A stretch of DNA of 64,000 nucleotides from Sphaerodactylus townsendi (Eukaryota), in the NCBI RefSeq assembly GCF_021028975.2, contig NC_059428.1, forward strand, positions 27,962,001 through 28,026,000, read 5' to 3'. The notes under the pieces were generated by a model that saw nothing but the letters and a program-made list of their open reading frames with translations, was not told where the DNA came from and did not search any database. Below are positions 1-55,805 of the stretch, piece by piece. The first letter of the stretch is position 1. Each line of letters begins with the position of its first letter. The position numbers and the translations under genes were made by a program.

Positions 1-724
1 CTGAATTAGATTTATCTTAAATAGGCACTAGGTTAAAATTACAGGTCAGGAATTTTCAGGGATCAGTAGCTAGGCTCAGCAGAATTTACATTCAAACAAT
101 TCCCATTGCACTTATCCTCCAACCCTCAGTTTATTATGAACAAAAAGTACATTAGCTGTCAGCCTCAGCATTCTAAAGTTTCCCATCAGTTTTTTCCTCC
201 AATAAATAAGTAATAAGAACTCACTTAAATTATCTGCATTGCTAGTTCTAGCAAGAATGCTTTCAGACTTAAGAATTCAATAATCTGATTGATTTTTACT
301 TGTTTAACAGCGACAACTTCAGGCGACATCTCCCATTAAAATAAAAACTGCATCATCGAGCATGAAAAAGGTTACAAAATCACATTGTACAAAAAGACTT
401 ACCTGAACTTAATGTATATTAAATAAATCATTCTTTGCAGTATTGTAAAGCATCAGCTCATTCTGCAGCTAAGATTATTGTCCTGGATTTAGGAGACAAG
501 CTAAAAGTCATATTTTAAGTCATTTTAACTAACTGAATTACAGCGGAGTAAAGTTAAAGTAGAATGTGACAATCTAAGAAATCACATGCGAGTTCTGGTA
601 GAAATAAGGAACTATAACAGGTATGCAAGATGAGGGCAGTACATAATCTTCATTATACCTTTTGTTCTTGGCTCATTTAATCCCCATATTTCTTTTGACA
701 CTGGAGCCTTTGAATGATAAACTC

Positions 725-2197
725 AGGGTGGATTTTTTTAAAAAAATTGAAATAGGGTTTTAAAATTTTTAAATCTGATTTTAAAAATTAAATGTTTCTG
801 AGGGAAAATCTATAGTTTAGAAGTTTTCTGTTCAAGAATTTTTTTGGTAAATGAATTGCATTAATCCATTTACAATGTCATGCTTTTCCAAAGGTTTCTG
901 TAAATTTTGGGCCATTTTTCCATCTAGCAGATATTATCACAGATGCTTGGTTTTATACTTCTCAAAACTTTGAATTTGTGTCTGTCTCTCCTTCACAGGA
1001 AAAGTTATAAAATAAATGTACAGAGTTGAGAAAAAGACTTTAATCCCATTGTTCCTATGCAAATATATGTACACAGATGCAATCCCTTACTTCTCAAATG
1101 CTAAGTTTCAATGAATACGAGATTGTTTGGAGTAGAATAGACCTGCACAAGGAGATGGGCAAGCTGTAAAAATGAAAGTAAAACTTTTTGAGCAGAATAC
1201 CTCACAAGTCTTGGAATCTTTGCCTGTGTAGATCTAGGTTTAATATTAATAGCTCCCTGGAGGTAAAAATCTACAGCTGCAGATCATAAGAGAGACCCAG
1301 TTTGGGAATATTTTAATGAAGTTCCTCTAATGGGTATTCAGCTATGTGTGCAAAATGCAAACACTGCAACTATGAAACGCAAGGCCTAGTGGCCTAAATG
1401 AAACTCAGGATAATTATAAAATTGAAAAATTATTATTATGAAAAAAATTAATGAAATTATTCTAAAAATGAAACTTTCATCTAGTTGTAAATATTAAGAT
1501 TATACCAGCAAGAATGAGTCACCTACAATCACTACTTCTGACCTGAAAATCTACATGACTGAGGTACCACTATAGGACACTGTTTTACCAGAATTGAGCC
1601 TGACTGAAAATACTGGCACACCTTAAAAGAGCAATAGTTTCAAAGTGAAGACCTGGGTTATAATGGTGCTAAACTTTTCAATATTTACCTCAGTCATTTT
1701 AAGACACTTTTTGACAACAGTGTAGCATTTTGTCTGATTGTAATATTTTTTAACATTATTTTTGACCACTGAAGAAGGCCTTTGAGCCAAAACACATCTG
1801 GGTCTAAAAGTGTTGCATAAGACTTGATGTGTTATCATTTTGTGATTTTCACTGATGTATGTTTGGAAGCCTATTTAGGGCCATTCACTATATTTTTATT
1901 ATAATTTAAATAAACACACTTGTATTTTTGCTACATAGCACTTTCCATTTTAAAAGATCCAATTTCATCTTAACCTTTTGGTTCTTTCCTCTATTGCTAC
2001 GAGGTGAACCATCTATCTTTCTATTTCTAATAGTATAACCAAATCTTTAATTTTTGATATTAATGTAAAATTAATTCAAAAAATGAAACCATGTGGTTGT
2101 GAATATTAAAATTATACCAGAAAGAATGAGTCTTTATGTAGAAAAATATGATTTAAATCAAGTCTTAGTGGCTATGATTTAAATCAAATCTACACTG
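725..2197 (+). mobile_element. hAT (Tip100/Zaphod-like) non-autonomous DNA transposon relic, interrupted
   Basis: Ends CAGGGTGGATTT... and ...GATTTAAATCAAATCTACACTG. Decayed BED-finger start (RDPVWEYFNEVP...AKCKHC) near 1290-1400. Homologous inverted copy at 44929-45556. Confidence 0.6.
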
Positions 2198-3267
2198 GAT
2201 AAACTTTTCAAATATTTAATGCTATTATGTACTCTGACCAATAGGATTAAGGTAAATTATACATTTAATCAAAATTGAGAGCATAATTTACTATTAAATC
2301 TCAACAAAACCAAAGGGTTTGCCCATGCAAGACTCAAGAAATTCAGTGAGATCTTAGTATTTAATTAGCACGTTTTGATGTTGTTCCACAGCAAAATGTT
2401 CTAAGCTATTCTCAATAAAATGCAAAATTAAAAGAGAATGCCACCATAACGAATGAAAAGAAGAATTTTTTAAACTGGTATACAGTATTTAAACTGGTAT
2501 ACAGTTTAAAACCTCAAGCTTATTCTCAGAAATTAAGCTTTTCACAACTAATATTCCAGCTATCACCTCTGTTTTACGTGCATAGAACTTCATCTTACAT
2601 TCAGCTCATTACCAAGTCTTCCAAGATGTTGGATGGGCAGTACTCTAGAAGAATCCAGTATGAACAAACGTTCCAGATTATGCTGTTTATGGAATGCTGA
2701 ACATTTTTTCTTTAAAAAATCAAATACATTTTTAGAACAAACCTCTATATTCACAGGATGCTCACTGGTTATATATTCAAGAAAATGTCAATCATATAAA
2801 ACAAATCCTATGCAATTATTCTTGATTCAGTAACATTATTTTATATGGCACAAACAAAATGATGGAAAGAGGTAACACACTTCTACAGCAGCTTCTACCA
2901 ACTTTTAAGTTATATATAGTTTTAATGAATAATTTAATTAACCATTTAATTAAGAATTAGCCATTTAATTAACAGTTAAAACAGAATAAGATACCAAATC
3001 AACTAAATTTGTTTTAATACACTTCAGAAATAAATGTAAGTTTAAAACATTCTTTTAAGAGCTGCTAATGTCAAACTAGAATTTACAATGTTTCAAAGAT
3101 CTCTGCACAGGGTCACATCCCCTCAACATGGCAGAACAGAGATCACAAGGAAGATATTAAAAAGGAGAAAGCGCACATTTGAGCCGTAGCACCAAAGCAT
3201 GTTTTTTAGACATCTGACCCTAAATCTGCAAAGCAATTTAATATTCTAAACTTTTAGAGATCATACT

Positions 3268-4878
3268 TGTTTCTCCAGGAGCAGGGACAACAGGCAGCAT
3301 TTGGTGGGAGGACATCCTTGCAACACCCCCTATCCTGTGGGGCTCCTCAGGGGGCAATCCTCTCATCAATGTTATTTAATATCTATATGCAGCTCAGCTG
3401 GTTCAGAGCTTTAGGCAGGGTTGCCCTCAATATGCTGATGACATCCAGCTCTATGTGTTGATGGAGGGCTAGTCAGTCTCCGCCTAGATATGCTGGCCAG
3501 GTGTTTGGGAGCAGTGGCAGAATGGTTGAAGAGTAGACTGAAATTAAATCTATGGAAGACAGAGGTTCTATGGCTAGGCCAGGAGGGTCCAGTGCAGGGG
3601 TAGGGAACCTTTAACACTCAAAGAGCCATTTGGACCCGTTTTCCATGGGAAAAGAAAACACTTGGAGCCGCAAATAATTTTTGACATTTAAAAGAAAGAT
3701 AACACTGTGTATATTGGGCTTTTTTACCTTTTACTCCACTCATTCTGAGAAGCACATGGATGCACCCGCCCTGCTGCCTGCAGGGCGGATAAGGATGGGG
3801 CCAGCGGCTCGGCCTTGCTGGCCGCCAGGAAAGAGCCCGCCCCGCTTGAACAAGGCGGGTGAGAGGGGAAGTCGCGGCGCAGCCCACCCGGCCGCGGGCA
3901 ATTGGTGCGCCCGCCCTGCTGCTTGCAGGGCAGGCAAGGATGAAGCCGGCGGCTCGGCTCGTGGAGCCACAGTGCAAGGGCAGAAGAGCCGCATGCAGCT
4001 CTCGAGCCGCAGGTTCCCTATCCCTGGTCCAGTGGAAGGCTTCCAGTTGCCAATTTAGATAGAGAGGTATTAACACCTGCTTCCTCCATTAAATACTATA
4101 CAGAAAAGGGACAAGTGCAATAGACTTATACATCCTCCTTCAAAAGCCTGGGTGTATTTTGCTGGTGTCCTCCTTATTGATGGAAACCCAGGTTGCCTAT
4201 ACGGCTAAAGTGGCCTTTTCCAATCTTCATCAGGTCAGCCCCAATCAGATTTGGTGAAAGTGATCCAGGCAATGATCACCTCTAGACTGGACTAGTGTAA
4301 CTTGCTCTACAATTCCAGATCATTTTCAAGGTTTTAGTATTAACCTTTAGGACCTTGAGAGGTGGGGACCATTGTATCTTCAGGACCCTCCACTCCCTAT
4401 ATCAACCTGAAGGACATTATGGTCTCTGGAAATAATCTCCTGGTAGTCCCCGGTCCCAAAAGTGCCTGGCGCACCTCAACCAGGGCCAGCGCTTTTTTGG
4501 CCCTGGTCCCAGACCGGTAGAACTCCCTCTCTGCTGAGACAAGGGCCCTGTGGGACCTAGCACAGTTCCACAGGGTCTGTAAAACAGAGATGTTCCACCA
4601 GGTCTTTGGTTAAGGCCTCTAAGGCTTATTCCAAACACTGCTGGCCTCTCAAACCTTTCCCCCACCTGGGCTTTTTCTCCTCCCTTTCCTTTTTATTGAG
4701 ACAAATTTGAATGAGGAAGGAAGGGAGATGTTAGGAATGGAAGAAAATGTTTAATATGTCTGATGAACGCTATCTTAGTGGGATAGTTTTTAACAGGCTT
4801 ATGAAGTTACTTATTGATGATTGTTGAGTCCAGCCTTGTGCTGGGAAAGGGTACAATATCGAATCTAATAAAATAAAA
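3268..4878 (+). mobile_element. L2-clade LINE 3' fragment (decayed RT), interrupted by a hAT MITE
   Basis: CGAPQGAILSSMLFNIYM and YADDIQLY-like motifs at 3336-3460, L2-like C-terminal segment, AATAAA-rich tail near 4866. Confidence 0.75.
3595..4026 (+). mobile_element. hAT-family non-autonomous element with GC-rich internal repeats
   Basis: TIRs CAGGGGTAGGGAACC / GGTTCCCTATCCCTG; perfect 8-bp TSD GTCCAGTG (3587-3594 and 4027-4034). Confidence 0.9.
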
Positions 4879-7827
4879 ACAAAAACATTATAGCAAATAT
4901 TCCAGTAGTTCACAGCTCTACTAGACAAATGTGAATTATGAACTGTTTGCATATTGTTCAATTCTTAGTACAGGATGGAGCAACTTTTTCAAACAGAAGT
5001 GGTTTGCTCAATGTATCAGGTTCAATTCAGACATGACAACAAGCCATAGTTTAGGAACTTTAATTTATGGCTTGGCATAAGCACTGAATTTTCAAACCAA
5101 TTACAGCCTACCTCCAGAGGCTGTTTTACTGGACAAGGTAGAAGTTCAGAACAAACAGAAAACAAATAAGAGCAGGCCCCTCTATGCCATGGTTTGGTTG
5201 CAAGTTGAAAAGTTAAAATTTTGTTTGGGTTCTACACTATGGTTCAAATAAGATGTTACTTGTCAAAATCTTAACTCAGATATTAAGAAGCTGTGATGGA
5301 TCTAATGAAAATAGTGTGTCACATAAACTCTGAAAATAGCGTGTCATAAAAACTGTCCTGTACAATGCTGTTTCAAAGCTAGGACGATGCAGAAGCAAAA
5401 AAAAAAGGGGGGGGGGACCTGACTGTGAAGGAGATGGTATCAATGTCTAACCAGGAGAAGGGGGAAAACTTAATGTGGGAGAAGAATTCCCTTCCCTAGT
5501 TTTGAGGTGGATTTACTTCAAAAGTTCTGAAGTAATCCTATAGGTTGGGTCTGGAGAGTCTGGAGGAAAAAAAGGGAGTTGGATGACTACTACTCCATTC
5601 GTTCTAGATTCTGGGTATCAGAGGTTACACATGAACCTCTTAGTGCAAGTCTGAGTCAGAGCTGCATATGTCTCTTATTCCAAAGAATGTCTCTTATTCC
5701 AAAGAAATGTAGAAATCTGTAACAAATTGAAATCTTATCAAACATTCAAATGCCATCTGAGCTTTACTATTAAGAACATCTTAATCTTTGTATATGTTTG
5801 CTTCTTTCCTTCTCATCAAATTTCTCCACACCCTTATCCCATTCCCCTGAGTCCAATAAAATTCTCATGTTTTATGGTTGACCTATGAAAAGCCTCTAGC
5901 ATGATAATCTCCAAGATCACATACAGCAGAGAAAAAAGAGGGGATCGCCTCAGTTCCTTGAGGAGATCAACAAGAGTTTCAGAGTACAAGCTTTCAAGAG
6001 TCAAAGCTCCCTTGCTTAGGCACAGTAGAAAGATGCTACTGGACTCAAATCTAACCATTCCACTAACATGCTGCACCTGTAGCATTGAAAGGTTTTGGTC
6101 ACAAAGTATGTTTTCCATGCAAATATGTTTCTGGAGAGAAGACCCACTTTGTGAATCATCATGGAACTGTGAATAAGAATGTCCCAATTCTGTTTATCAC
6201 AAGATCAATTCTTAGTCCCAAACCAAATCCCAACACTGGTGTTGCTTCCCAAGCACTTCTCCCTTCTCCACTTAAAAGACAAGGAAGATGTGAATGGAGC
6301 GAATAAGACAGAACACTTTTTTATGCAATCCAGGGGATCCAGCTTTAGCCACAATGTGCAAGCTAACATTAGTGCCACGGTAACTTTACAAGGTCCAGTT
6401 ATTATGCATAATTTTCTTCATTTTACCTCTAAGAATTTCCATGCTCTTGCAAGAACTGTGAAAATGTAATATAGGCCAGAGACATCCCGACTTCTGTACT
6501 GCTGGGATCATTCTTCCAGGGACTACTCCAGGGGCTGGAACCATCCCGCTGCCTCATGAAACAGCAGCTCCTATAATCGAGTTGCCATATCCTAACAGTG
6601 AAGCCTTTAAAGATACATGGTTCGCATGATTATGCAAAGTACTTATTGACCTGCTTTCCATAAAACATGTTCAAAGTTTCAAAGGCATGAGCTCAACTAT
6701 TGTGGGCAAGGAGCAAGTATACTTCCACAAAGATCCCTTACAGACGGACAGTGGTTTTCTATCTTTCCAGAATATGCAACAGAAGCCCAATAACTTGTAT
6801 ATGCAGAATACATGAAATTCCATAGTTTCCAAGTAAAAGAGAGCAAATACAAAATGAAATATTAAATATTTGCGATGGAGAATGGGGTTGTAGAATGTAA
6901 GGAACTAAAGCACAGGCATTCAAAATATATGATCCAAGTAAAAATCACAAGACATTATTTCAGTAACATTTCACATTATTGTGATGCATCTTTCCCAAAC
7001 AATAGCAGTTTCTGCAATTTTGTAGGATCACTAAAATACATAAGTTTAAACTGTACTCATGAGCATTTTTCTGGAATCAAGACTTATTTTTAAACAACAA
7101 TATGGGTATACTGAGAAAAACATCAATGTCAGTTCATGATTTAATTTAAACCCTGCCTTATGATACAGCTGAACACATTTGGATGAAATAATTTGTAATA
7201 TTAAATTAAACATTAAAATTGTTTCACTCATTATTAATATTTACAAGAAGTTTATTCTTCATTGGTTGATCAAACTATACCTAGATGTTTCAGCGGATCT
7301 TGGAAACCACAAAAAAGGCTGTGCAATCTGACTACACCTGCAACCCATTAGGTTCCTATGTTTATATTTTGCTTAGAACCAGGTAATCCATTAATAAGAA
7401 CTTCCATACTAAAAATGATTGCAAGTCAACCCTTGGAAGCCTATCACATGTATGGCCAAGAAAAGGGTAGAAATGGAAAAGTACATTTCATCCACTGTAC
7501 TATGTGGATAACATTTATTTACTGATATTTTCAAAGTTCCTTTTGAATGTACCTCCTACATCTAGCTCTTCTATTATGCTAAAAGTAATCCAGTGTTCAC
7601 CCAAATGATTCACTGTCTCAAATACATTGGTTACTAAGTTTTCTATTTCACATTAAGAAAACCAATATTGTGAAATTCCACATTTCTATCAAAATTTAAA
7701 GTTTAAAAAGTAAAATAAAAGTGTAAATGGAAAAACAAATCATTTCAAAAACTATATGTGGGAAAGTAGTCAGAGAATTACTTTTTATCTCTGAGATTCA
7801 AATGTTTATTCTCTTTAAGACTCTGAG

Positions 7828-8398
7828 AGCCCCATCCAAAGGAGGGGGGCGCTATGGGAGTGGCATGCCAGCAAATTTGCCCTCCACAGGGCACTTACTC
7901 CAGAAGAAGGACAATTTTGCCAGCATGCAGTCAGTGCCACCCTCCCCTGGCGCTGGGATGTAGTGCTGGCTGTCACCAGCATCCCATGATCATGCCACCT
8001 TGCATAGGCGCAAGTGGGGGCAGTCCAGGGGCATGGCTAAAAGATGTCAACTTTAGTCGACTCTCTCCTGGCCACAGTACACCAGCTGCGTCTGGATCAG
8101 ACTTAAGCCTCACCAATTTTCTTTTTATAACATCAATTTTAACCATAACCTTTACCATCATAACCTATCAATGTTTCTGACTATATGTATATTTTAATTT
8201 TATGTCGATAAAGGTATTTGTACTTGTACTTATTAAGCCACTGAGAACGGTGGGTTAAGTCTGAGCAGCCCCATAGTCGCTGCTCAACAGCTGGGATGTT
8301 TTTTTGCAGCCTCCCCATACCACTTGGAAACCCCTTCGAAATGGCAGAGCGGCGCAGTTGCAGTTTTGCAGTCAGATGCTGACTTGTGGATGGGGCTG
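7828..8398. mobile_element. TIR-bounded MITE-like repeat with an internal AT-rich insertion
   Basis: Inverted ends AGCCCCATCCA / TGGATGGGGCT. Internal inverted pair TCAGACTTAAG...CACC / GGTGGGTTAAGTCTGA around an AT-rich insert at about 8115-8248. Confidence 0.45.
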
Positions 8399-9780
8399 TG
8401 AATGTTAATTACTCTTACCTTCCCTGTCTAGAATAGTAAATGAGAACAGAAGGAAGCAATTTGTAGTTAATTTATATGACTAGCATATTTCTCTTTTATC
8501 ATGCAATGTGGGCATTTGCTATCTGAAAAACAAAAACTCTGCTGAACGTGGGCTTAGTTATTACACTGGTTCTGTGGACAATAATCCTTGTGAGAAAATT
8601 ATTTTTATTATGTCAAAAAGGACACTGTGAACCTAGTGAGAATTTAAGAATTTTAAAAATTGCAATTTTGCCTGAAACAGGGTCTCTTACTAGTTGTAGA
8701 TACCTTGGAAGGGGCTGAGACAATTTTATTAGTAATAGGTAAAGATTCCTGGCCCCAATTCTATCAAATCATCTTATATGAGGGAATTACTTTAAAGTTG
8801 AAGGCACTACTTCAAAGTTATTCTGATCAAAGTATGGTCTTACCTTGATAAGTGGATCAGAAGTAGAAAAATCTCTCTTCCAGTTGCTTAAAATGAACAT
8901 TCTTGTCAATTCAACACCAGCAGGAAAAGTAAGCAGATGTTCTAGTTTGATTATTATACAATCTTTCTGCATTCATGGCCACTGTTCCATATAATGTCAA
9001 TATGCTTAAGGTTGTTTATATGATAAGATGTACATCAATCAGTAATTGTTTGGCATGTGAACATCCTCAATATTTACATGTATGCAAAACCTTTTATAGG
9101 ATTATTACAATATACTTTGCACGTCATAGAACCCATATATACTAGCACAAAGACCATAAAGAAGAATATGTGTTTCTCTACCATGCCAGTTTCCTACTAT
9201 GACAGTCCCTTCATTTTTCTGTGAGAATGAAATATCCACAATAGCATCAATAGTACGGAAAAAGATTTCTGGAAAAAAACTGGAAGTCTTGAGAAATACT
9301 ACCCACTATGAATCCTATAAGGCAATACCACAGGTCCTTAAATAAAAGTATAATGTAACATCTATGAAATGTCAAGGTTTAGTTTGCAATTTGTTTTGCA
9401 AAAAGTTACCATTTTCTATGACTACAAAAACCACAGGTGAATATTTACTGCTTAGAGAAGTTTCAACTCAAAGTGTTTATTTAAAAGTTAAACAGAGAAT
9501 ACATTCTGATGACAATCCAATTGCAACTATATTTGTACACATTGGTGGGAATATTTTTTTACTCATCTAAAATGGCTGCAGATGTTCTACAGATGCAATA
9601 GCCTGAACATTTGTTCTACTGCATATCACAAACTGCATCATCACATGTATACAATGGATAAAACATTTTATTTTGAGAAAGTAGGCATTATAAAAGAAGG
9701 AAAAAGTATGCTTACAATTAAAATTAAGGACAATATTCATAACAATGATTCAAAAGTGTCTCAACTGATTTGTTTTATAT

Positions 9781-9786
9781 TTTATT
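9781..9786 (-). terminator. Proximal polyadenylation signal AATAAA of PSPC1 3'UTR
   Basis: First AATAAA on the minus strand, about 265 nt after the stop codon; another lies at 9667-9672. Confidence 0.6.
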
Positions 9787-10049
9787 GTAAGCATGGAACT
9801 GCACAAATATCACAGCATGGTCACACTAAATTCTACTGGTCACAAACATCTGACGTACAAAGTGAAGCACATCATTTCTGTTCTACACTAAAGCCTCTGA
9901 CCATATACAAAAAAAGTCTAAGTCTTACAAAACAAAAAAATATTTTAATGACTACAGAGACAATAAAACCGTTTAAAGTAATAGCTAAAATGATAAAGGC
10001 ATACACACCAGATAGTCAGTGATTTTTTTTCTCTTAAGGAATGAAAATT

Positions 10050-10235
10050 TCAGTATCTGCGACGCTTGTTAGGTCCTTCAAAGTTGCCCCCTGGGTTTCC
10101 TCTACCAAAGCCACCAGGTCCGCTATTGACACCACCTACACCACCCATAGATGGTTGAGGAGTTTCAGAGCCTGTTCTACTAACCATAGCTGAACCCATT
10201 TGTGGAGGGCCTCCTGGAGGGAATCTCTCAGTGTG
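10050..10235 (-). CDS. PSPC1: PSPC1 coding exon 9 (last; C-terminal NLS and stop)
   Basis: TGTTAG|CAC; [61 protein letters not shown]; TGA at 10050-10052. Confidence 0.96.
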
Positions 10236-10469
10236 CTAACACAGACAATATTAAGTCCATTTGGAATGAGCCAGCATTTAAAAAGGCCATTAAAAAAAAC
10301 AGACAAAAAAGTGGTGTTTCCATGAAGTTCAGCAGATAGTCCAGCAGAGTCAGATGACACATAGAAGGAAGAAAGGAGCAATTAAGTTAGTCATTACCTT
10401 AACAGTAAGCTGAAAAAGTAAGTGTCCACTAGTGTATTCAGATAAAAGCAAATAAAGTTTAAGATCATA

Positions 10470-10592
10470 GGCCCCTTCCACACACGCAAAATAATGCGTT
10501 TTCAAACCACTTTCACAACTGTTTGCAAGTGGATTTTGCTATTCCACACAGCTTCAAAGAGCACTGAAAGCAGTTTGAAAGCGGAATGAGCC
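10470..10592. mobile_element. Short MITE (PIF/Harbinger-like), internally deleted copy
   Basis: Near-identical to 52779-52919; starts GGCCCCTTCCACAC and ends GCGGAATGAGCC. Confidence 0.65.
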
Positions 10593-11814
10593 CAAGTGAA
10601 GCAATATATAATTTTATTCCACTCAGAGCTCTCTCTAAAGGAAGAGTGGTACAGAAGTGTGTTAAATATTCTGAATTTTAATTCTGTAGAAAACTGAATT
10701 GTATGTAAAGAAATAATGTAAGCTACCTAATATCAATTTATCAATATTAAACAGAACCAGTCCCACTAGGTTTTGGAAAATCTATTCCCTCAGAAACAGT
10801 AAAAAAAAAGGAGTTTAGGATAGCAGACTAATAAAAGATGAACCCAGTTTTACAGTTCTACAAACAAATATATATAGCTAAACGTCATTTTTCACCTGAG
10901 CCTTCAACCTGCAAATTCGGCAGACACCTTTTCTTTAATAATATTAACTGCCAATATAAAGAACGGTAAGGATTATCCAAACTGAGATCCACTGTTGTTA
11001 AAAAGGCAACTTCTAAATTATGGCTAAGATCTAAATGGCTGTTCCACCAGGGTAATGGCAGTTCACCAGGTTAAACTATGCAGGCATTTGCAGTGGCCAG
11101 CCACCACAGGACCCAGCTTCTGGGTTTGAGTGCTGCAGCGGTCAGTCACTGTGGTAAGGCTCTAGGCGCCAGAGCCCGTGCCAATTTGCACAGTGCTGGT
11201 GGCACAGACACCAGTGCAACTCTTCCGCCACTTCCAATGATTTTCAGCCCCTCCTTTGGATTGTACAGTTAGTCTTCCTGAGCTTTACCAGAGAAGATAC
11301 CAGTTTAAATAGCTACAAAAATGAGAAAGACCAAGTACAGAAATATTTGTAAATTTGCTTTAAATAGGTCTGCTGTTTCCATGATTTATTCTAAATTAAT
11401 TTTAGGGTGTTCATTATTTTCTTGCGAGTAGAGGACTAGACAGATTCATAGAGGATAGTCTATCACTGCCAAATAGCAATGATGACTAAATGAAATCTCC
11501 ATTTTCAGAAGCTGCATCCTAGTGAAAACCAGCCACTGGGGAACAATGTGGGGGACCTCTCATTCCCATTCTCTGCTTGTCGGCTTTCCAAAGTCAATTA
11601 GATGATTACTATACAAAGCAGGATCCTAGATAAGAGGAACCTTTGGTCTGATCCAACAAGACACTTATGTTCCTAGATTCACTTGTATGTTACTTGTAAT
11701 TAAAATAACTAGTTGTCATGCATAGTGGTACAGTTGATTTCCAATAATTTATGAATACTTTGTAAAGGGGTGTACTACTGGAGTTATGCACAAAACAGAT
11801 TCTATAGTTTAGAG

Positions 11815-12000
11815 CAGTGGTTCTCAACCTGGGGGTGGGGACCCCTTTGGGGGTCGAACGACCCTTTCACAGGGGTCGCCTAAGACTCTCTGCATCAGTG
11901 TTCTCCATCTGTAAAATGGATAAATGTTAGGGTTGGGGGTCACCACAACATGAGGAACTGTATTAAAGGGTCGTGGCATTAGGAAGGTTGAGAACCACTG
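11815..12000 (+). mobile_element. SPIN (Space Invaders)/URR1-like non-autonomous hAT MITE
   Basis: TIRs CAGTGGTTCTCAACCT / AGGTTGAGAACCACTG. Arms GACCCCTTTGGGGGTCGAACGACCCTTTCACAGGGGTCGCCTAAGAC and GGTTGGGGGTCACCACAACATGAGGAACTGTATTAAAGGGTCG match SPIN/URR1 as I recall it. TSD GTTTAGAG / GTTTAGAA. Confidence 0.85.
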
Positions 12001-13358: not shown

Positions 13359-13537
13359 CACAGCTCCATTATCTGGCATCATTGGTGTCCCAATGTTTGC
13401 AGCTCCTTCTGGCCCCAAGGAAGGACCAGGACCCATTGCAGGGCCAGGCATTGTTCCTCTGTTGTTCATATTCATACCCATCATTGGAGGAGGAGGAGGA
13501 GGACCTTGGTTTCCAGCAGGTGCTGGGCTAAAGGCAT
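13359..13537 (-). CDS. PSPC1: PSPC1 coding exon 8 (Pro/Gly/Met-rich low-complexity region)
   Basis: TTTTGCATAG|AT; [60 protein letters not shown]; donor GTG|GTAATG; 179 nt. Confidence 0.95.
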
Positions 13538-14178: not shown

Positions 14179-16840
14179 TATTTATTTATTTATTTATACC
14201 CCACCCTGCCCCCAACGGGCTCAGGGCAGCTTACAATGGCATAAAGCCAAAAATCATCCACAAAATTCCTATAAATAACAATCAATAAAATAAAATCATA
14301 AAACGATTTAAAACAATCCAACTAAAAACTCAGATGGCAAGACATGCTGTTTCTCCCACAGGAGGTTCAGGGGAGATATCGTAATCAGGAAACATCTGGC
14401 TGGCTTGATAGAAAGGCCTGGCAGAACATCTGTTTTATAGACCCTGCAGAACTGGGTAAAGTTCCACAGGGCCCTGATGTTATATGGCAGCATGTTCCAC
14501 TAGTTACAGCCAGCCGGATATCCCTCAGGACTGGGACCACCAGTAGACTCCCCTTCGCTGAGCAAAGAGATATCTGAGAGCGGTATTGGGAGATGCAGTC
14601 CTGCAAGTATGTGGGTCCAAGGCAACATATGGCCTTATAGGTTAACACCAAAACTCTGAAGATGATCTGGTACTCGACAGGCAGCCAGTGTACATATTCC
14701 AGGACCGGAGTTATATGGTCTCTGCTGGCTGCTCCTGTAAGCAGCCTCATGGTTACATTTTAGACAAGTTTTAATTTCCAGATCAGCAACAAAGGTAAGC
14801 CAGCGTACAGCGAGTTGCAGTAATCTAGTGTAGAGATGACAGTTGCATGGATGACTGCGGTGAGGTCGGACTAGGAGAGGTAGGGGGCCAACTGCTTAGC
14901 CTGGCGAAGGTGGAAAAAAGCAGCCTGGGCTGTTCTTGTGACCTGGTCCTCCAACCAAAGGACAGAGTCCAAGGTCACATCAAAACTCTTCACTGATTAA
15001 GTCAGATGTAGGGCCTCAACATCTAAGGCTAGCAGTTGGAAGTTCCCCAGCCTCTCCCCCCAACCCAGCCACAGTATCTCAGTCTTTGCTAGATTCAGTC
15101 TGCTCGTTTTCAACCAGCCAGCCACAACTTCTAAACAATACTGGAGATCATCAGGGGCAGAGTCCAGCTGACCCTCCATTGTAAGGATGAGTTCGGTGTC
15201 ATCAGCAAACTCATGGCACTGTAAACCACAGCTCTGTATCAACAGGGCTAGGGATCGCTTGAAGATGTTAAATAACATTGGGGAAAGGATGGCTTCCTAT
15301 AGCACTCCACACCTGATGGGGTGTCTCTTTGATACACCCCCCACCCCCCGGACATCACCTGCAATCCTGGGCCCTGGAGGAAAGAGGTCATCCAGCGCAA
15401 GGCTGTCCCTCTAAATTTGGTGTTGGCGAGGCGGTGGACCAGATATTCATGGTCTGCTACATCAAATGCTGCGGTAAGATCTAATAATACCAGCAGCGTA
15501 GTCCCACCTTGATCCAATTGGAGCCAGAGCTCATTTACAACGGCGAGTAGCATGGTCTCCATCCTATGACCAGCACAGAAACCGGACTGGTAGGGATCCA
15601 ACACCTTTGTGTCATCCAGGAAAATCTGTAGCTGTTTCGCAACTGCTCTCTCAATTATTGTCAAAGCCAAAGGATTTCAAGATGGTCTTTTTAGAGTGAG
15701 TGGACTACTGTCTCTTTTAACTGCCCTGGAAACACTCCTTGCTCAAGGGAGAAGCTGATAATTTTCAGCAGAGGGTCCCGTAGTACTTCCTCACTGGTCT
15801 TCGCCAGCCAGGATGGGTATGGGTCAAGGGGACAAGTAGTAGATCGAGTAGCAGCCAGAATCCTGTTGACATCAGTGTGGTTAAGAAGTCTGAGTTGGTC
15901 TAGACCAGGGGTAGGGAACCTGCGGCTCTCCAGATGTTCAGGAACTACAATTCCCATCAGCCTCTGTCAGCATGGCCAATTGGCCATGCTGGTAGGGGCT
16001 GATGGGAATTGTAGTTCCTGAACATCTGGAGAGCCGCAGGTTCCCTACCCCTGGTCTAGACAAGGACCAGAAGACGGGCAAGGGGCCTCTAGTTCATTTA
16101 CTGTGTTAAATATGGCAGGAAGGTCGTGGCAGAGAGACAAGATTTTTATCTGCGAAAAAGCTTGCAAACATCTCACAGCTAAATACCAATCCCTGAGATT
16201 TGGGACCTGTATTCAAGATCGTAAGTGTCTGAATAATTGTGCCGGGTGTGAGCTTGCATTCTTGCAGGCTTTCATAAGCGTCCTAAATGAGTGCCTCGAT
16301 TCCTTGTCACGAGTATGCCACCACACTCACTCCAGTTGTCTCAGTTCCTATTTAGTCCTCCTCAGCGTACCAAGGGGCCAATTTGGACCAGGGATGGAGA
16401 GGATGCCTTGGTGCAACAATCTTGATCACTTGAGAGAGCTTGGTTTCCCAGCTCCCTATCAGCTCTTTCAGAGTTGCCAACAGGTGGTGACTCCCACAGG
16501 ATGTTCTGGAACCCAATCGGGTCCATAAGTCTCCACGGGTGGGCCCAAATATGCCCATCACTTAAGCGGCTGGGGTGAGAGAATAGCTATTTCAATCCAG
16601 ACCTTCAGAGCGAAGTGGTAGGACCATGGCATTCTATCTATGGAGGATAGGACCACACACACACCCCGCCCCAGAGATCAAATCCAGAGTGTAGCCACCC
16701 TGATGAGTGGGGCCCTTGACATTCATAAGGGAGAGACCTAGTGTTGCCATGGATGACACTAGATCCGTGGCCACTGAAGATGAGACTCTGAAGAACAAAG
16801 TCATTTGGAATGATGTAGAAGATCAAATCAATTAAATCCC
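14179..16840 (-). mobile_element. L2-clade LINE, 5'-truncated, decayed ORF2 (APE end plus RT) in PSPC1 intron 7
   Basis: ORF fragments LDPYQSGF...ETMLL...LLVLLDLTAAFD, FADDTEL, HITPVLEYVHWLPVEYQIIFRVLVLTYKA and GPTHQGGYTLDL; (ATTT)n tail at 14179-14196. Confidence 0.88.
15906..16053. mobile_element. Palindromic 148-bp hAT MITE nested in the L2
   Basis: Almost perfect inverted repeat over its whole length; TIR CAGGGGTAGGGAACC; perfect 8-bp TSD GTCTAGAC (15898-15905, 16054-16061). Confidence 0.92.
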
Positions 16841-21845: not shown

Positions 21846-23546
21846 AACCCACACTCGAACTGCCTTCCTTACCTTAAACAAAACTTCCACTCAAAATAGA
21901 ATCCATATTTACAACAGGAAAAAACCCCACTATTCTTAGTTCCATATAGTGATGTAGATTTAACCCCTGGGCTGGATGCAAGATCAGGTAAAGAGGACAA
22001 TAAGAAAATCAAAACTATCTAATTTCATAGCTTGTCACTTCATTTCAAAATGTCACTGATTTTCAAAAAAGTATCTTTCACGTAAGCAGGCTGAAGTTAT
22101 TTTCATTGAAGCTCATAATGGGGAATTCAATACTCCTCAACATTTGGATAAGTTTTTCAGTTTTCCAAAAGCAGAAGTGGCATTTCACTCTAAAAACTCT
22201 TGAACACACAACTAAGTAACCACTTGGCCACATTAGCCACTTAGTGATCAGATCCCCACAATTACTATTAGACAGCTCACTTTCTTGAGGTAAAAACAAC
22301 GTGACACATTCTCAGATATTTCGTACTACTTTTTACCTAAATCAGCATTTTTCTTTATCCTCAGACTGCAGAAATATACAGCATTTCACCTGCAGCAGAA
22401 GATCCCTAAAATCTACTGCATGTTCTCCTGTCTTCCCAGTAACTCCTCACTGCAAGAGCATTTAGAACACTTTTACAGCAGCATTTTCAAATGCTGTCCT
22501 CAGGCCTGAAGTACAAGGACAATTCCAGAGGGTGCACAAAGCTTAATTCACAGTACTTCCGTCTGGATTATTATTATTATTACAAACTTCTCAAACAAAA
22601 GAATGATAATAGTCCTATTCATTGGGGCTCAAGAAACACTGGTGAGTAATGAGGAACAGAACTCCTGGTCAGCTCGTTTTCTTTACCACTACAAAGACTG
22701 TCATAGGGAAGATGGGGAGTTTCCTACATGCCACATTAACCTGTTCAGGGGCACAGAGTGCAGCGCTTTAGAGTTAGATCTTCACTAGGTAGGATGGGAG
22801 CCAATGATTCTTTGCATGCCCTGGCCCCAAGCCTTTTAGAGCCTTGGAAATAACAACCAGTGGTTTGAATTGTGCCTAGAAACAAATGGGTAGCCAGCGC
22901 AGACCTTTCGGCACAAGAATGATACAATCCCTGTAGCTAACCTCTGATAGCAAGTAGCCTGTCTCTTGCACTGTGGACCAACTGAAGTTTCCACACCATT
23001 TTCAAAGGCAGCCCCATGCTTCTCTCGTCTAAAAAGGACAACTGATCACATGAACCGACCATTACTGAAACTCAAAGCAGCTCACTAATTTGTTCGTTTT
23101 AGTACCCTGCTAACAACTAACTCATATCATACCTTGTCTTCCTCCTCCTCCCAGATGCCCACATTGGCATGCAAGAATTAAAGGTGCCCACTGAGGGAAA
23201 CGACTCCTCCCCCCTCAATACCATGTCAACAGTTCCCTCCTGCTTGTCATTCTGTTCACAGATGCCTGCCCCTCTTCCCAGATCCCTGCATCACCATGCA
23301 GCAGTTAACAGCAGTTGTGGCTGCCAGCAGTCCTGACTCTCCCCCAGAGAACAGCCAATGACTACTCCTCCTTAGGCAGTTGCACACAGTACAGTGACTG
23401 TAGTTATTCAGCACTGGGGGAGAATGGCAAATACATGAGAGAGTAACTACCACATTCCGCTGTTTTGTGCCTATTCTGTGTAAGCTCCACCCCCAAACCT
23501 GGTGCATGGTAAGGCAGGGTAATCGGGAGCCCAGGAGGCTGACCAT

Positions 23547-23647
23547 CTCATCAGCCTCTGTCAGCATGGCCAATTGGCCATGCTGCTAGGGGCTGATGGG
23601 AATTGTAGTTCCTGAACATCTGGAGAGCCGCAGGTTCCCTACCCCTG
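23547..23647. mobile_element. Partial copy of the palindromic hAT MITE
   Basis: CATCAGCCTCTGTCAGCATGGCCAATTGGCCATGCTG...GAGCCGCAGGTTCCCTACCCCTG, near-identical to 15955-16053. Confidence 0.8.
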
Positions 23648-24513
23648 GTGTAGCCTAACCTGTGATGGAATTAAGAGGGAGAGAATGGTCTTTCTACCTG
23701 GAATGCTGCCCTCTGACCTGGCAGAACAGTGCCCTGAACATAGGAGTCTGTTTGGATTCAGAACTCCATCTTGGGACTATGTCTGACCTTTTGGACAAAA
23801 ATGCCTAAAAGACCTCCTCCCTCAACTTCACCTCATGCCTGGCATGTACTCAGGAAACAGCATTTGAATATGAACAACAGCACATCTGGGCAACATCAGT
23901 TCTCTTTTGTCTATATCTCTTAACTCAAGGGTCTTCCTCTGACTCACCTTCCTTGTGACCATCTATGCTGTAACACTCATTAAGAGTCGTTACCTGTTTA
24001 TTGTCCACGCCCAGCGAAACCCATTCAAGACAATGGGTTAGCCATCAGGTCAATAGTCTGACACTCAAGACTATTGCCTCACCTGGAACAACAGGAAAAA
24101 TCAGTTGTTCAAGGATTTCCTTTGCCCCAAGACATGTTTCTCCCTATAAAAGCCCACCTCAGACCCCAGTTAGGTGTTCAATATTAATACTACACACCAC
24201 CATAGTGCTCGATAATATTGTTCCATCAGCACTGATCATTTCAGAGCCTAGTGCTGGCCCATTAGGTCTCTGTCTCCTGGACATCTACTACAAGACTGGT
24301 AAATATAAACTTTAATGTCCCATCCCTTCTCTATATATAACCAAAACCTGTCTTTCACCTCTAAATTACATCCTAGGAAACCTTGTATGTGTGTGTTTTT
24401 CCCCAAAAGCTGAATGATTGCGAGTGTGGTTTTATTTTATTTCATTATTTTCTCAATAAAACCCTTAAAAAATTTATTTTTCTCTGCTGCTTTCTTCTAA
24501 AGAGCTGAAACCC

Positions 24514-25368: not shown

Positions 25369-25461
25369 GCTACAATTCCCATCAGCCCCTGTCAGCATGG
25401 CAGGGGCTGATGGGAATTGTAGTTCATGAACATCTGGAGAGCCGCAGGTTGCAGACCCCTG
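25369..25461. mobile_element. Partial palindromic hAT MITE
   Basis: CTACAATTCCCATCAGCCCCTG...GGGCTGATGGGAATTGTAGTTC...GAGCCGCAGGTTGCAGACCCCTG. Confidence 0.75.
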
Positions 25462-28400
25462 GTTTAGGGAAATGTCTGTGCCAGATTCCTTCTTCAGTAT
25501 ATATACAAATAACAAATACTGGACTGCTATATTCATTACAGATATGATGAAGTAGTAGACCAGTGAAAATGCAGCTTCTCAACCCTTAATTATATCAAGT
25601 TGGGAACAGACTTGTTTTCTCTTCCTCCTCTACTCTCCTTCAACTGAGAATTCTTCCATAACTCCTGAACATCTTCCGAACAACTAAAGGAAGTATGAGG
25701 TGATAAATCTTAATACAAGGAAGAAATATTGTTGAGTAAGAGGTAAGGCTGTTGAGTAAGAGGTAAGGCTAGTCTGACATTATATCTACAACATTTCTAG
25801 ATCCAGAATTACTGTTTCAAATGCAGGTTGAGGAGGCATACTGGCCTATTTTTCCAAATTAGGTCCACTTGCCAGGTGTAGCTGTTACTAGAAAGAGCTG
25901 ATCTGGTCACTATCATCCATGCTATGCTAACATTTAAAACATTCTACAAATGATTCCACTCTGCAGCCTTTTTATGCCAGTGAATGCTCTTTTCAGCATT
26001 TCAGAACATAAACTGTTACTTATACAACCCTATATTTTTTTGTCTCTGGGCAGGATCGTAATATGTTGGAGGCAAATTCCCTTCAGCAAAGGCATAGCTT
26101 CACGCAATATCCCTTTCTTTTCAGCCAAGTTACTTCCTGTGCTGGCCAGCTGACCAGTTATCTCAGCTGGCCAGTTATTCCTTTAGCAATTTTGTATAAA
26201 GTTAAAACCTTGGGCTCATCAAAAAAAGTTTTGTACTCCTGGAGTTTTTCACAATTCTAGGAACTCTGTATTAACCCATTAATCAACCCATGCTAGCATC
26301 AGCCATTGTTAACAGCAGGGTAGAAATAATACCAAACAATAACTTGCTGAAGAAGAGCATGAGACTCTGCAGCCCACTCTCATTAATGAGTGTGGGCAGG
26401 CAAAAAGATTTCTAACAATTCTTCACACCACTTCAGATCCCTACTTTGCTCCCTAAGCTGTTCGTGCTCAGTGGGTAGCAGCAATGGAGGTCAAGGTAGG
26501 AGTCTTATGCCTGTGATGGACCAAAGTATCACTGGAAAGTATCATTATTTAACATTTACATAATGCACTGAAGCACTCAAATTGCTTCTATTGCATTATA
26601 TCAGCAATCCATAATAATTTTTAGCATAAGCAAGAATTATGTAAATGACTCACCAAAGGTCACTGAGCTAGTGGTGGTTGAAGTAAAATTTGATCTAGAA
26701 AATGCCCAGTTCACACAGTTAACAACTATACTTTATCATATCCCATATCTTTTTAATGTCATAGCTGGGTGATGAATATTTCTTCTGTAACAACAATCAT
26801 ATGGCAGGATGAGTAGTATGTAGCATGCTAAATCTTTAGCTTTTTGTTCTCTAAACAATAGCAAATAACTCTCAGATATTTAAACAGAGGAATAAATTCA
26901 AATACTCACTGTTCACCAAGTGGTTTTGCCAAGTGCAACATGTGAATTCAGAATATAACAGTTGCCTTACAATACTTCAACATTTTTAAAAGCTTATAGT
27001 AAATTACATAAAAATTATAAACATTAATCCCTTCAAAGATATATTTACAAATGAAAAATGAACTGCCACACCATACAACTGAAAGATTTCAGTTCCTTCA
27101 GATTTATAGGCATTTTCAATGAAAATCCAAATATGTCACATGTCACATGGTTCTCTGATTGAATTGCATATTAATCAGTTAACATTATCTTACAAAATTT
27201 CTGACTATTTGAAACAAAGTATTCACCCCTAAAAGTAGAAATTAAAAAAACTTTACACAATCAATAGCAGCCCTTGTATTCACTGATACACAATACATGT
27301 TAAATTACGAACAGCAGTACAACCAATTTGGGTAAGCTCATTTTACCAATCCACTCTTTAAAGAGCCCTCAGCCACACCCACTCCAGATGAGGTTATGCA
27401 GGGAGTTAGCTTCCCTAGGTGGGAGTTAGCTTCTCAAGATCAAGATTGTTTGCTTCACTCACCACAGAGAATTAAAGCAGCAGAAATGAAATACAAGGTT
27501 AAAAGTGAAACAAGCATGTCTCTGATTTAAGTGTAACCTACTATGAAATACAAATGACATACAACACAAAGGATCAGAAGTTTTTTAACTATGCAAGTAG
27601 TTTCACACTGTGGTCTCTCCAGCCACAAGTTCTTGCCTAAGTTTGAGGTAAAAATAACAAATCCTTCCTTGTGCAGATAGAACGTGCTTTATGCAATTAC
27701 TAGCAATCAGACTCTTACCTTAACAGAGACAATGCAGAATCCTGTTATATAAACAACTATATACATAAAATACCATACACAATGCACACAGCGTCCTCCC
27801 CGGTAGAGTAATACAAAAATCAGACACATGTCATTTGTGGAACCCTTCACTTACTAGCTATTGTTACAGAAGAGGGGAATAATCAAAACAGACTGGAAAA
27901 TATGAAGCAGAGAGATGTTAGTCTTGCTTGCTGAAAATTGAGAAGTATATATTTTCTGGAATAGAAACTTGGGCAGCAAGAAAGAAGCCTCCCAGGGCTG
28001 ATGACATAATGCGAGGGAGCCACTTGGTAAGAAGCAGAAAGTAGCAGGAGTGTCTGAATTTCTCTATAATGATTCCACATGTTAAGTTATACCACTGGCT
28101 ATAGGTTTCCAGTTATACCAATAATGAACGTGGAATTGACTTGAGCTATATTCTTAGTATACCACTGTGGCTCTAACAAAACTAATTCCACAGTCCCTTC
28201 TAAAATTCTAACCATCCCAAATTGAGTAACTGAATGAAACAACCAGGTCACACATTCATCTTTCTCAAAAACTGCATGCATGATTTTAGTTCATGATAAG
28301 AATTTAATGTCAAATTGTTCAACGGTAAATAGTGCTTACATGCAAAATTTCTTCAAAAAAAGAAGCATCCAGCATATATTTAAAAATACTGCTCCTAGGC

Positions 28401-28774
28401 CTGATTCTGAGGAACACTAAGATTTTAAGCCATTAACTGACATTCCTATAATTTCCGTTTTTACTTAGCAGAACAATTAGATTTTAGAACAATCATAGCT
28501 GACAATGACAACTTGGAGTGTCTTGTAACTTGAAAAAATAACTTTAGTACGTTCTTTAAATGATTCTGCTGACATCTTTTCTTCATAGCTGTAAATCTAG
28601 ACTTTATCTTTAATAAGAAAAAGCAGGAAGACTCTGCAGACATGTCAATTCGCTATACAAAGGCTAGTACTTAGTAAACCATCTTGGGGGTCACTTGAGT
28701 GGAAAAAGGTGGCATCAAAATGGTTTCATAAAATGATGTGCAAGAAGTGTGTATGCCATATGCAAATATGAATA

Positions 28775-28847
28775 TTGGCCATGCTGGAAGGGGCTGATGG
28801 GAATCATCATCCATGAACATCTGGGGTGCCAGAGTTGGACACCCCTG
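28775..28847. mobile_element. Half copy of the palindromic hAT MITE
   Basis: TGGCCATGCTGGAAGGGGCTGATGGGAA...GAACATCTGG...GTTGGACACCCCTG. Confidence 0.6.
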
Positions 28848-30233
28848 ATCTAACACATACACATAGCCATTTCTACTGCATGATGAACATCCAGGGCTGA
28901 CTACTACCGGTACGTGAAACAGGATGCGGGACTAGCTGGATCATCCAGCAAGGCTCTTCCTACATTAGCATGAACAAGGGAATGCTAGAATCCTTTCATT
29001 ATTTGTATATGTATTCAATTTTGATTACAGATAAAAGAGTAAAAATATTTTATTCACTATGCTTTTGGAATATCTGGAGAACGTTTCAATGTTTATCACA
29101 GGCAATTTCCGCCAACTCCATCAGACAAGTTAAAATTGTGCCAAACATGCTCAAGGAATTAACTTGCCTCCCCCTCAATAAACTATCATGCAAGTCCCCC
29201 ATCCAATCCCCCAGGATCAAAAATTTCTGTCGTTGTCACCTGCATTGTCATATTTGATACCGGGTGGGGTAGGAACAGAACAGGAGAAGGGCTTAAGAAA
29301 ACATCATGTTTTCAGTGCAGTTTCTCAGATAGTCACCCTTTTGGTTAACAATGATGTGAGGCTGAACTAGCACTCCTAGTGGAGATGCACTTTGTGATCT
29401 GGGTTTGTCAGCGCAAAACAAACTGTCAATACTGGACAAAATATCTAGGTTCAATAACTTATGAGCTGTACAGGCAGAGAGAGTCTGGAATAGTCCCCCT
29501 TCTTGTAAGTAACTGGCATGGTATGTCATGCTGGCTGAAATAAGCCTGTGCTGAAAATCTAACAGGCATATCAGTATCTGCCTAAGCAAAGTCTCTTAAT
29601 TGCATTTCTTTCCATCACCAACCTTCTGTATCTGCTTTAGAAATTCCTTGGGAAGATTTATAGGTGTGAGAGAATACCGGCCTGTAATAGGCTCTGTTTT
29701 ACAATCCTATACTACTGTCCTTAAGAACTGCAACAAAGTCGCCCCCATGGGTTAATTAATGTCTGTGCATTGATCAACTAACTTTCCAACACACAAGAAG
29801 CTTCTTTGGGACACATTATCCAATTTGAAATTAAAGAAATCAAAAGATTTTTCCTCCTTTTGGAGTTATAAAGATGATGGCGGCAGCTGTTTTTGAACTA
29901 TTTTGACGTGGGATGAGGATGACACAGCTGGAGATAAGGTAAAGCCTTGCCTAAACCCTCAGTTTATTACACAACACTGACACTTAGAAGCATTTAAGAA
30001 CATGAGTCAATGAAAAAATTCAAGAAATACCAAGGCAATGGATATAGTACTTTTCCAGCTTAATGAGAGTTCTTCCCTTTTTAATTCTACATTTTAAAGT
30101 ATCTTTTATTTAGTCCACACATGAACACCATGCATTGCTCATTTTAAACTGTCCTCCAAAATGAAAACGTTAATTATATCAAATGATTAATAGTTCCAAC
30201 ATTCACTTGATCTGTAAGATCAATTCAATGAAC

Positions 30234-39687: not shown

Positions 39688-39796
39688 ATTGTCAATGAAA
39701 TTTGGCTTAAATCCTCCCTCTTGCTGTCTCCTGAGTTCTTCCTGTTCTCTTTGACGCAGCATCTCTTCTTCACGTCGTCTATGCTCTTCTTCATGT
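39688..39796 (-). CDS. PSPC1: PSPC1 coding exon 6 (end of coiled coil)
   Basis: TTTAG|A; [36 protein letters not shown]; donor AAT|GTAAGT; 109 nt; ends in phase 0. Confidence 0.96.
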
Positions 39797-40060: not shown

Positions 40061-41618
40061 TGAAGGACATCTGGGTTTCCCCATCAGCCAAGCACAGGGA
40101 GGCAGGAATAAAGTATCTTGAGCCTCCCGGTCTGGTGGGGGCACCTTCTCCAGTTCTGGGATTCTGAAAAAGTTACACCCACTGGATTGAAGCAAGCAAA
40201 CACCTCTCTGCCTGAAGGAAGCAATGAGCATGTAACAAGAACAGAACAGAGGGAGACCGCAACTTGGAGGATAAATGGAGCAGCCCAGCAAACACTGACA
40301 GAAGAACAGGCTGGGAAGCTCAACACCAACAGAATACAGTTACAATAACAGTCACAGTCGCCTGATTTATGTGGGGTATCAACAGGCATCTGCCGAACTG
40401 AAAACATTCAACTTGTAATGGCGCACAAAGGTGGAGATGGAAGACCACGTCGCAGCCCTGCAGATCTCCTCCCCCGATGCATTGTTATTGAAGGCAGCGT
40501 TGGTGAAGGCATTTCTCACTGAATGACCTGCAATCCCTACTGGTACAGTCAAGTTCTGTGACTTGTAGGCCTCAGCTATGCACTCCCACAAACACTTGCT
40601 GATAGTCTGAGCTGACAGCTTGAAACCTCTGCTATGACTTACAACTGATATATACAGCGCTTCTGATTTTCTGAAGTCCTGTGTTCTGATAAGAAACACC
40701 TTAAGGGTGCGCCTTATGTCAAGCTTGTGCCAATAAACCTCCTTCAGGTGCCGAGGGTTTGGACAGAAGGAGAGTAAGAAGTTCTCCTGCTGGCAGTGAA
40801 AGGTAGAATGAATCTTCGAGGTGAAGGAGGGATCCATCCTAAGGACCACCTTGTCCTTGTGGAAGACGCACAGGGATGGTTTGACTGACAGTGCCACTAA
40901 CTCTTGACACTCACTGTGCCAAGATGACCACCACAAGGAATATAGTCTTCACTCTGAGATGCTTGAGCAAAGTGTCCATAATTGGTTGAAAGAGATGCTT
41001 AGTCAGAGCATGTAAAACTGAATACAGCTTCCAAGTGGGAAAGCGGTGCCTAGTTGACAAGGACTTAAAGGATACCCCTCTAAGGAAGCGTTTGATGTGA
41101 GGATGCAGAGATGGAACTCTTCTCTCTAAGGTGTGTACCATGGACGATAAAGCCACTAACTGTCTGCATGGGGTAGAAGCACGGAGATCAGCTTCCAGTC
41201 CATTCTGGAGGACGTGCCCATCCTTTCTGCTGCTAAATCTGCTCCAGCTGCCGCATTTTCCTCGTACGAGGAAAGGAACAGTTGCTCCCTTTGAGGCATT
41301 TTTCCCCTTCCGTGTCTTTTCTGAAGCCAACTGGCCAGCCTAGTGCAAAGGAACCTTCAGTCATTTAAACACAGTCGCCAAGAGAGAACTGTGCTTCTCT
41401 CTCGATAGCAAGCCAAAGAAATAGAAGCAGAGAGGAAAGTTAAGAAGGAAAATGTTAGATCTTTAGCAAGGTAAAGGAGAAGGTGACTGAACCCAACTGC
41501 ACTCCCCGGAGGCAGGAGAGAACTGGAGAAGGGGAGGGGCCCCAGCAACCCAGGAGGCTCAAGATAGTTTACTCCTGCCTCCCTGTGATTGGCTGATGAG
41601 AAAACCTAGATGTCCTCA
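40061..41618 (-). mobile_element. DIRS1-like tyrosine-recombinase retrotransposon, internally deleted, ITR-bounded, in PSPC1 intron 5
   Basis: Frameshifted YR ORFs 40911-41330 and 40379-40936 (HPHIKRFLRG...FPTW...FHKDKVVLR...LDIRRTL...GHSVR...ICRAATWSSISTFVRHY). About 100-bp inverted terminal repeats at 40061-40157 and 41519-41618. Confidence 0.88.
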
Positions 41619-55655: not shown

Positions 55656-55805
55656 NNNNNNNNNNNNNNNNNNNNNNNNNNNNNNNNNNNNNNNNNNNNN
55701 NNNNNNNNNNNNNNNNNNNNNNNNNNNNNNNNNNNNNNNNNNNNNNNNNNNNNNNNNNNNNNNNNNNNNNNNNNNNNNNNNNNNNNNNNNNNNNNNNNNN
55801 NNNNN
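55656..55805. other. Assembly gap (150 N)
   Basis: Run of N. Confidence 1.

Follow-up and report, generated by a model that had tools for sequence, protein, structure and literature searches.

An exon-like segment behind the canonical last exon of PSPC1 in the gecko Sphaerodactylus townsendi, and the distal exons of its relatives

The PSPC1 locus and the segment behind its last exon

The stretch analysed here (the window) comprises 64,000 nucleotides of Sphaerodactylus townsendi contig NC_059428.1, and its minus strand carries a squamate PSPC1 gene. The initial annotation had named this gene from the letters alone, and protein searches bear the name out, the best named matches of the exon-1 protein being lizard paraspeckle component 1 at 84-86% identity. 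RRM_1 and NOPS domains lie on exons 2 and 4, and the closest protein, judged by eye, is that of the gecko Paroedura picta. Exon-end mapping established that the donors at 39688 (exon 6) and 13359 (exon 8), named earlier as possible upstream partners of the segment considered here, are genuine and in phase 0. An assembly gap, a run of 150 N at 55656-55805, lies upstream of the gene. The features to which we refer are the following, with splice scores taken from an approximate splice matrix:

48452, minus strand: PSPC1 start (exon-end mapping)
39688..39796, minus strand: exon 6, with a phase-0 donor at which the short isoforms of relatives diverge
from 19939, minus strand: exon 7 (exon-end mapping)
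13359..13537, minus strand: exon 8, with a phase-0 donor used for the distal tails of relatives
10236..10416, minus strand: 3' part of intron 8, conserved in a bird locus (L001 alignment)
10050..10235, minus strand: coding part of exon 9, the canonical last exon, ending KRRRY*
9781..9786, minus strand: AATAAA common to the bird locus, with conservation ending about 25 nt further
8523..8536, minus strand: CAG acceptor (10.5 bits) preceded by a short T-rich tract, with an AG-free zone of only 12 nt
8419..8522, minus strand: exon-like segment of 104 nt (sequence, translation and stop-to-donor distances)
8519..8520, minus strand: second AG, 4 nt downstream of the first, 4.5 bits, required for the DKR reading
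8411..8418, minus strand: donor GTAAGAGT, 10.5 bits
7828..8397, no strand assigned: stretch of about 570 bp with 11-nt perfect inverted repeat ends, starting 21 nt after the donor (inverted-repeat scan)

A metagenome scan yielded one confirmed PSPC1 locus (L001) out of 174 pattern matches, with an exon 9 of bird type. It aligns with the window once, at 10416-9761, with 76% identity and an E-value of 2.6e-128, and the alignment spans exon 9 together with the adjoining 180 nt of intron 8, and continues through the 3' UTR until shortly after the AATAAA at 9786. This hexamer is probably the main poly(A) signal. Further AATAAA hexamers are found on the minus strand at 9672, 9481, 8730 and 8609, between 9786 and the candidate acceptor and outside the bird alignment. 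The acceptor of exon 9 scores only 3.2 bits on the same approximate matrix and has a 160-nt AG-free zone; together with the conserved end of intron 8, this weakness suggests that the choice of exon 9 or a distal exon is regulated.

The 104-nt segment is present in the sequence as it had been described, with the acceptor TTTTTGTTTTTCAG-ATAG opening at 8522, the donor AAG-GTAAGAGT closing at 8419 and a second AG opening at 8518. The canonical stop ends at 10050, which is 1528 nt before the acceptor and agrees with the earlier figure of about 1.5 kb. Translated in phase 0, the segment reads IANAHIA* from 8522 and QMPTLHDKREIC* from 8518, with stops 80 and 61 nt ahead of the donor, respectively. 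By the general 55-nt rule both distances predict NMD, and both give the layout of a poison exon (in which the stop precedes a junction by more than 50-55 nt), provided that donor 8419 is used. Potential acceptors that score well are predicted downstream of it, for example at 4576, 4840 and 1142. No match to a branch-point pattern was found in the stretch before the 8522 acceptor, tandem repeats were not found at the segment, and Rfam gave 0 matches at gathering score within positions 1-12000.

On the approximate matrix, the 8522 acceptor is stronger than six of the seven genuine PSPC1 acceptors scored and the 8419 donor is stronger than all seven genuine donors. Counting the candidate, the window has two pairs this strong at a spacing of 50-250 nt in the sense orientation and none in the antisense. 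An order-4 Markov simulation produced 0.58 such pairs per 64 kb, with at least one pair in 28 of 60 runs, and our own scaling of this rate to the 10 kb that follow the stop gives an expectation of about 0.09. The candidate pair is thus modestly notable, yet within reach of chance. The other strong sense-strand pair, at 24082-23948 (minus strand) in intron 6, encloses 135 nt and scores 11.6 and 12.0 bits, above the candidate's values; CTGAT stands at -19 and the AG-free zone measures 35 nt. The phase-0 reading of the enclosed sequence is VRQ*, so its use as an exon would make it a poison cassette.

The stretch at 7828-8397, which contains a second inverted pair of 13 nt (8097-8109 and 8252-8264), is probably a mobile element. 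Elsewhere in the window, broken retroelement frames lie at 15000-15676 (minus strand), 58925-59299 (plus strand) and 40382-40948 (minus strand), with RVT_1 matches at E-values of 5.7e-7, 1.2e-5 and 1.9e-5. A near-perfect palindrome of 164 nt (96%) at 15898-16061 sits within a reverse-transcriptase remnant region and has related copies at 23546-23659, 25370-25467 and 28774-28852, and intron 5 contains a weak tyrosine-recombinase-type Phage_integrase match below cut-off (E 0.008).

Alternative C-terminal tails in relatives

Protein searches and cluster look-ups gave 463 proteins, and all counts given here are counts among the matches listed. The exon-6 end motif is present in 281 of them, and the 182 proteins lacking it were left unclassified. 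In rough, pattern-based bins, the 281 comprise 96 that continue to canonical exon 9, 27 that read into intron 6, 20 with a tail of the K-[IM]-L-K-C type, 5 with GDKRK[CR]G, 2 that end at the motif and 131 others. The last bin, which includes some fish proteins as well as the near-members DDKRKRG (manatee), EKRKHG and VTIKIITCR, holds 111 distinct tails; relatives thus have many tails annotated that are unrelated to one another, and lineage-specific exons are common at PSPC1.

The 20 listed holders of a K-[IM]-L-K-C-type tail are birds, a turtle, a python, a lacertid, a monitor, a skink, an amphisbaenian, anoles and the gecko Paroedura. Variants include VTIKILKCR in birds, VKIKMLKCR in the turtle, EAVKILKCG in the python, EMVMMLKCS in Podarcis, ERVKMLQCS in Varanus, ETKMLKCH in Tiliqua and GTVKMLMLKCC in Paroedura (example accessions: Paroedura XP_077197765.1, Tiliqua XP_066474824.1, Liasis KAM6446822.1 and Gallus XP_040556118.1; the listed proteins concerned include P0255, P0154, P0139, P0225, P0003, P0030 and P0038). 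In the annotated proteins, the tail joins exon 6 or exon 8 in phase 0. As judged from these sequences, the K-[IM]-L-K-C exon is a conserved sauropsid distal exon of PSPC1. Passerine annotations contain a frameshifted, longer version of the distal tail, one of which ends DKRES.

The mammal-type tail GDKRK[CR]G was found in five sequences with a mammal-type exon 6, and in each it follows exon 6 directly. This agrees with the earlier statement that the short isoform leaves at the end of exon 6; the ending GDKRKCG proposed for the human isoform was not seen in the two human-named short forms retrieved (P0058 and P0190), which end differently. Mammalian and sauropsid tails have a terminal K-C-G/R in common, but a K-[IM]-L-K-C profile gives GDKRKCG only -0.7 bits.

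The same profile, which scores its own members at 14.1-22.2 bits when each is left out in turn, gives the two candidate readings -13.6 and -18.6 bits, and the motif is missing from the candidate in all frames. Nor was a K-[IM]-L-K-C exon found elsewhere in the window, no more than 6.3 bits being reached by any of the 1479 stop-ended windows that follow exon 6. The genuine sauropsid distal exon of this gecko therefore likely lies past the left edge of the window (position 1). Two further sequences that resemble such a tail, FKILKFS (8657) and DKMLHCC (1734), were rejected: in a scan of 6406 windows they scored 9.2 and 6.6 bits, short of the 14.1 bits of the weakest member, and neither is followed by a stop. 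A tblastn search of the window with 19 squamate alternative tails gave no convincing match on the minus strand and none at the candidate, the best E-value being 0.012 under permissive settings.

None of four candidate 4-mers occurs within the last 60 residues of any of the 463 listed proteins. Annotations often omit NMD transcripts, however, so that absence from protein sets is weak evidence. At the DNA level, the candidate scored 32 on one strand and 43 on the other in a comparison with the one bird locus, where 200 shuffles gave 32.5 +/- 4.0 and at most 50, and no counterpart of the candidate was found in the 2.36 kb that follow the stop in this locus; the bird's own distal exon is also not in that stretch. 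The tail comparison includes one gecko.

Rival readings of the segment

One possible reading, which we consider less likely than a cryptic exon, is that the segment is a gecko-specific poison cassette in regular use, spliced from exon 6 or exon 8 to 8522 and from 8419 to a further exon, such that decay of the product tunes the level of PSPC1. The two 10.5-bit sites, which form one of only two such pairs in the window, and stops placed well ahead of the donor are consistent with this, as is the regulated choice suggested by the weak exon-9 acceptor and the conserved intron before it. There are also precedents within the gene family. Passages of a study of SFPQ (PMC12372870) describe distal exons that yield an NMD-sensitive, autoregulatory and partly translated isoform, the first distal exon being well conserved and expressed, and passages of a second report (10.64898/2026.06.30.735642) describe a human PSPC1 poison-exon isoform that is stabilised and increases under cycloheximide. 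Like altSFPQ as described in those passages, the candidate belongs to a DBHS gene, SFPQ being its paralog, and would form an exon past the canonical last exon with an early stop and possible downstream junctions; altSFPQ has two RefSeq forms differing by a 3-nt shift, and the candidate has two AGs 4 nt apart (PMC12372870). The candidate is a predicted exon, whereas for the first SFPQ distal exon conservation, expression, NMD sensitivity and autoregulation have been demonstrated according to the same passages (PMC12372870).

The tail of the Paroedura X3 isoform (SNVHLFRCHE...) offers some further encouragement for regular use in geckos. Its start, SNVHL, is the best match to IANAHIA among non-canonical tails (score 17 of 34) and, as a likeness to ANAHI, ranks 27-55 of 2558; over its full length the tail ranks only 1526-1911 of 2553 and 187 of 359, and we rejected a relationship as unproven. 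Against regular use stand the absence of detectable conservation in the bird locus and the tail alignments, the short AG-free zone lacking a branch-point match, the frequency of chance pairs in simulation and the absence of the segment's peptides from the 463 listed proteins.

The initial annotation had hinted instead at a conserved exon; in this reading the segment would be orthologous to the exon of the mammalian short isoform and would have kept DKR..C since the amniote ancestor. The mammalian short isoform (391 aa in mouse, of the GDKRK[CR]G type) derives from the same gene, and the candidate would use the same exon-6 donor; its product, like mammalian short PSPC1, would be devoid of the putative C-terminal NLS described in passages of PMC4395133. 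In phase 0 on exon 6 or exon 8, it would also resemble the sauropsid K-[IM]-L-K-C exon in giving a short, stop-ended tail. In protein and DNA tests, though, the segment showed no significant match to either the GDKRK[CR]G or the K-[IM]-L-K-C tails. In an acceptor-anchored, frameshift-tolerant DNA alignment with five tails it ranked 103-2327 of 2553 AG sites, while the same alignment with bird and mammal exon 9, used as a positive control, placed 10235 at rank 1. Against mammal-type tails, the anchored rank was 337-1155 of 2553 at the DNA level and, at the protein level, 381 of 1014 for IANAHIA and 30 of 1014 for QMPTLHDKREIC.

The likeness to DKR is best seen when the comparison is freed from the junction. 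With GDKRK[CR]G as the query, TLHDKREIC then comes third of 1823 stop-ended windows and leads those located past the stop, but two intronic windows score higher, and DNA tiles for four mammal-type tails rank the candidate 38, 12, 2 and 26 of 359, never first, with rank 2 for the manatee DDKRKRG. No GDKRK[CR]G-like residues directly follow the exon-6 junction in the candidate: its DKR lies six codons past the weaker acceptor, compared with one residue past the junction in the mammal-type tail, and orthology would hence require six additional codons as well as use of the second AG with its 4.5 bits. The passerine tail that likewise ends DKRES might seem to support an old DKR ending, but as a relative of the candidate it ranks only 31-37 of 359, and squamate tails, a gecko's included, are of the K-[IM]-L-K-C type. 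The DKR similarity thus appears weak though not nil, and inside the noise of intronic DNA. We consider it improbable that this segment and the mammalian GDKRK tail go back to one ancestral exon, such that geckos would have retained the segment as a genuine distal exon alongside the K-[IM]-L-K-C exon; owing to the weak DKR and X3 hints, orthology is kept as a roughly one-in-ten prospect, and on these comparisons the interpretation as a conserved exon is not supported.

Finally, the donor at 8419 might serve a micro-exon of 9 nt (8427-8419, Thr-Gly-Lys in phase 0), which would make the 104-nt reading wrong, and for which the following acceptor zone could be used:

8419..8479, minus strand: inner acceptor zone with a branch-point-like TTAAC at -40, a 50-nt AG-free pyrimidine-rich zone and TAG (sequence scan)

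This is the least likely of the rival readings. The inner acceptor does score 8.8 bits over a 20-nt tract against 5.5 for 8522 on that measure, but similar micro-pairs number four on the sense and three on the antisense strand, and no Thr-Gly-Lys tail start was seen among the relatives' tails inspected by eye.

A probable cryptic exon on a proposed distal splicing path

The best explanation, to which we assign a probability of about 0.55, is that the 104-nt segment is a lineage-restricted cryptic exon that is mostly skipped and would trigger NMD if included. Intronic pseudo-exons and cryptic exons of vertebrates have strong site pairs, in-frame stops and no conservation, and the candidate resembles them in all three respects and adjoins a probable mobile element. 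Unlike typical pseudo-exons, it is located past the probable main poly(A) signal, and only transcripts on a distal path could therefore reach it. The lack of matches in relatives, a similarity to the bird locus at shuffle level, the 0.58 chance pairs per 64 kb and the many unrelated tails annotated at this gene all count for a cryptic exon. Counting against it are sites stronger than nearly all genuine PSPC1 sites in a 10-kb region where so few pairs are expected, together with the high placing of TLHDKREIC, the second rank with a mammal-tail DNA tile and the likeness to the X3 start.

As a cryptic exon, the segment would fit into PSPC1 expression as follows. In most transcripts exon 8 would be joined to exon 9, with the 3' end close to the AATAAA at 9786. 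A minority would skip the weak exon-9 acceptor and splice from the donor of exon 6 or exon 8 to the conserved K-[IM]-L-K-C exon past the left edge of the window. The 104-nt segment would sit inside that long intron and be picked up accidentally. A transcript including it would gain 7 or 12 residues and then meet a stop, which would lie 80 or 61 nt ahead of a junction; its product would have neither the KRRRY end nor the C-terminal low-complexity region, and the transcript would be degraded. A selected function is unnecessary for a cryptic exon, and the segment would at best be one more lineage-specific NMD-type exon, of a kind already known.

Among the titles and opening lines of abstracts listed from the open-licence literature, none dealt with PSPC1 isoforms of reptiles, no paper on PSP1beta was found, and the short PSPC1 isoform was not found in passages of PMC10984136, PMC9214724, PMC12063141 and PMC2742191.

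If the segment is a cryptic exon, it is itself of little importance. Were it instead the ortholog of the mammalian exon, an SFPQ-like distal-exon decay switch in PSPC1 would date to the amniote ancestor, and such a switch would extend outside mammals, where paraspeckles were described. A more useful by-product of this analysis is the distal K-[IM]-L-K-C exon of PSPC1, which is recurrent across bird, turtle and squamate annotations. In light of what passages of PMC12372870 describe for SFPQ, this recurrent distal exon and a weak exon-9 acceptor preceded by 180 nt of intronic sequence that is conserved in a bird locus suggest that the choice between the two ends of PSPC1 may be conserved and regulated.
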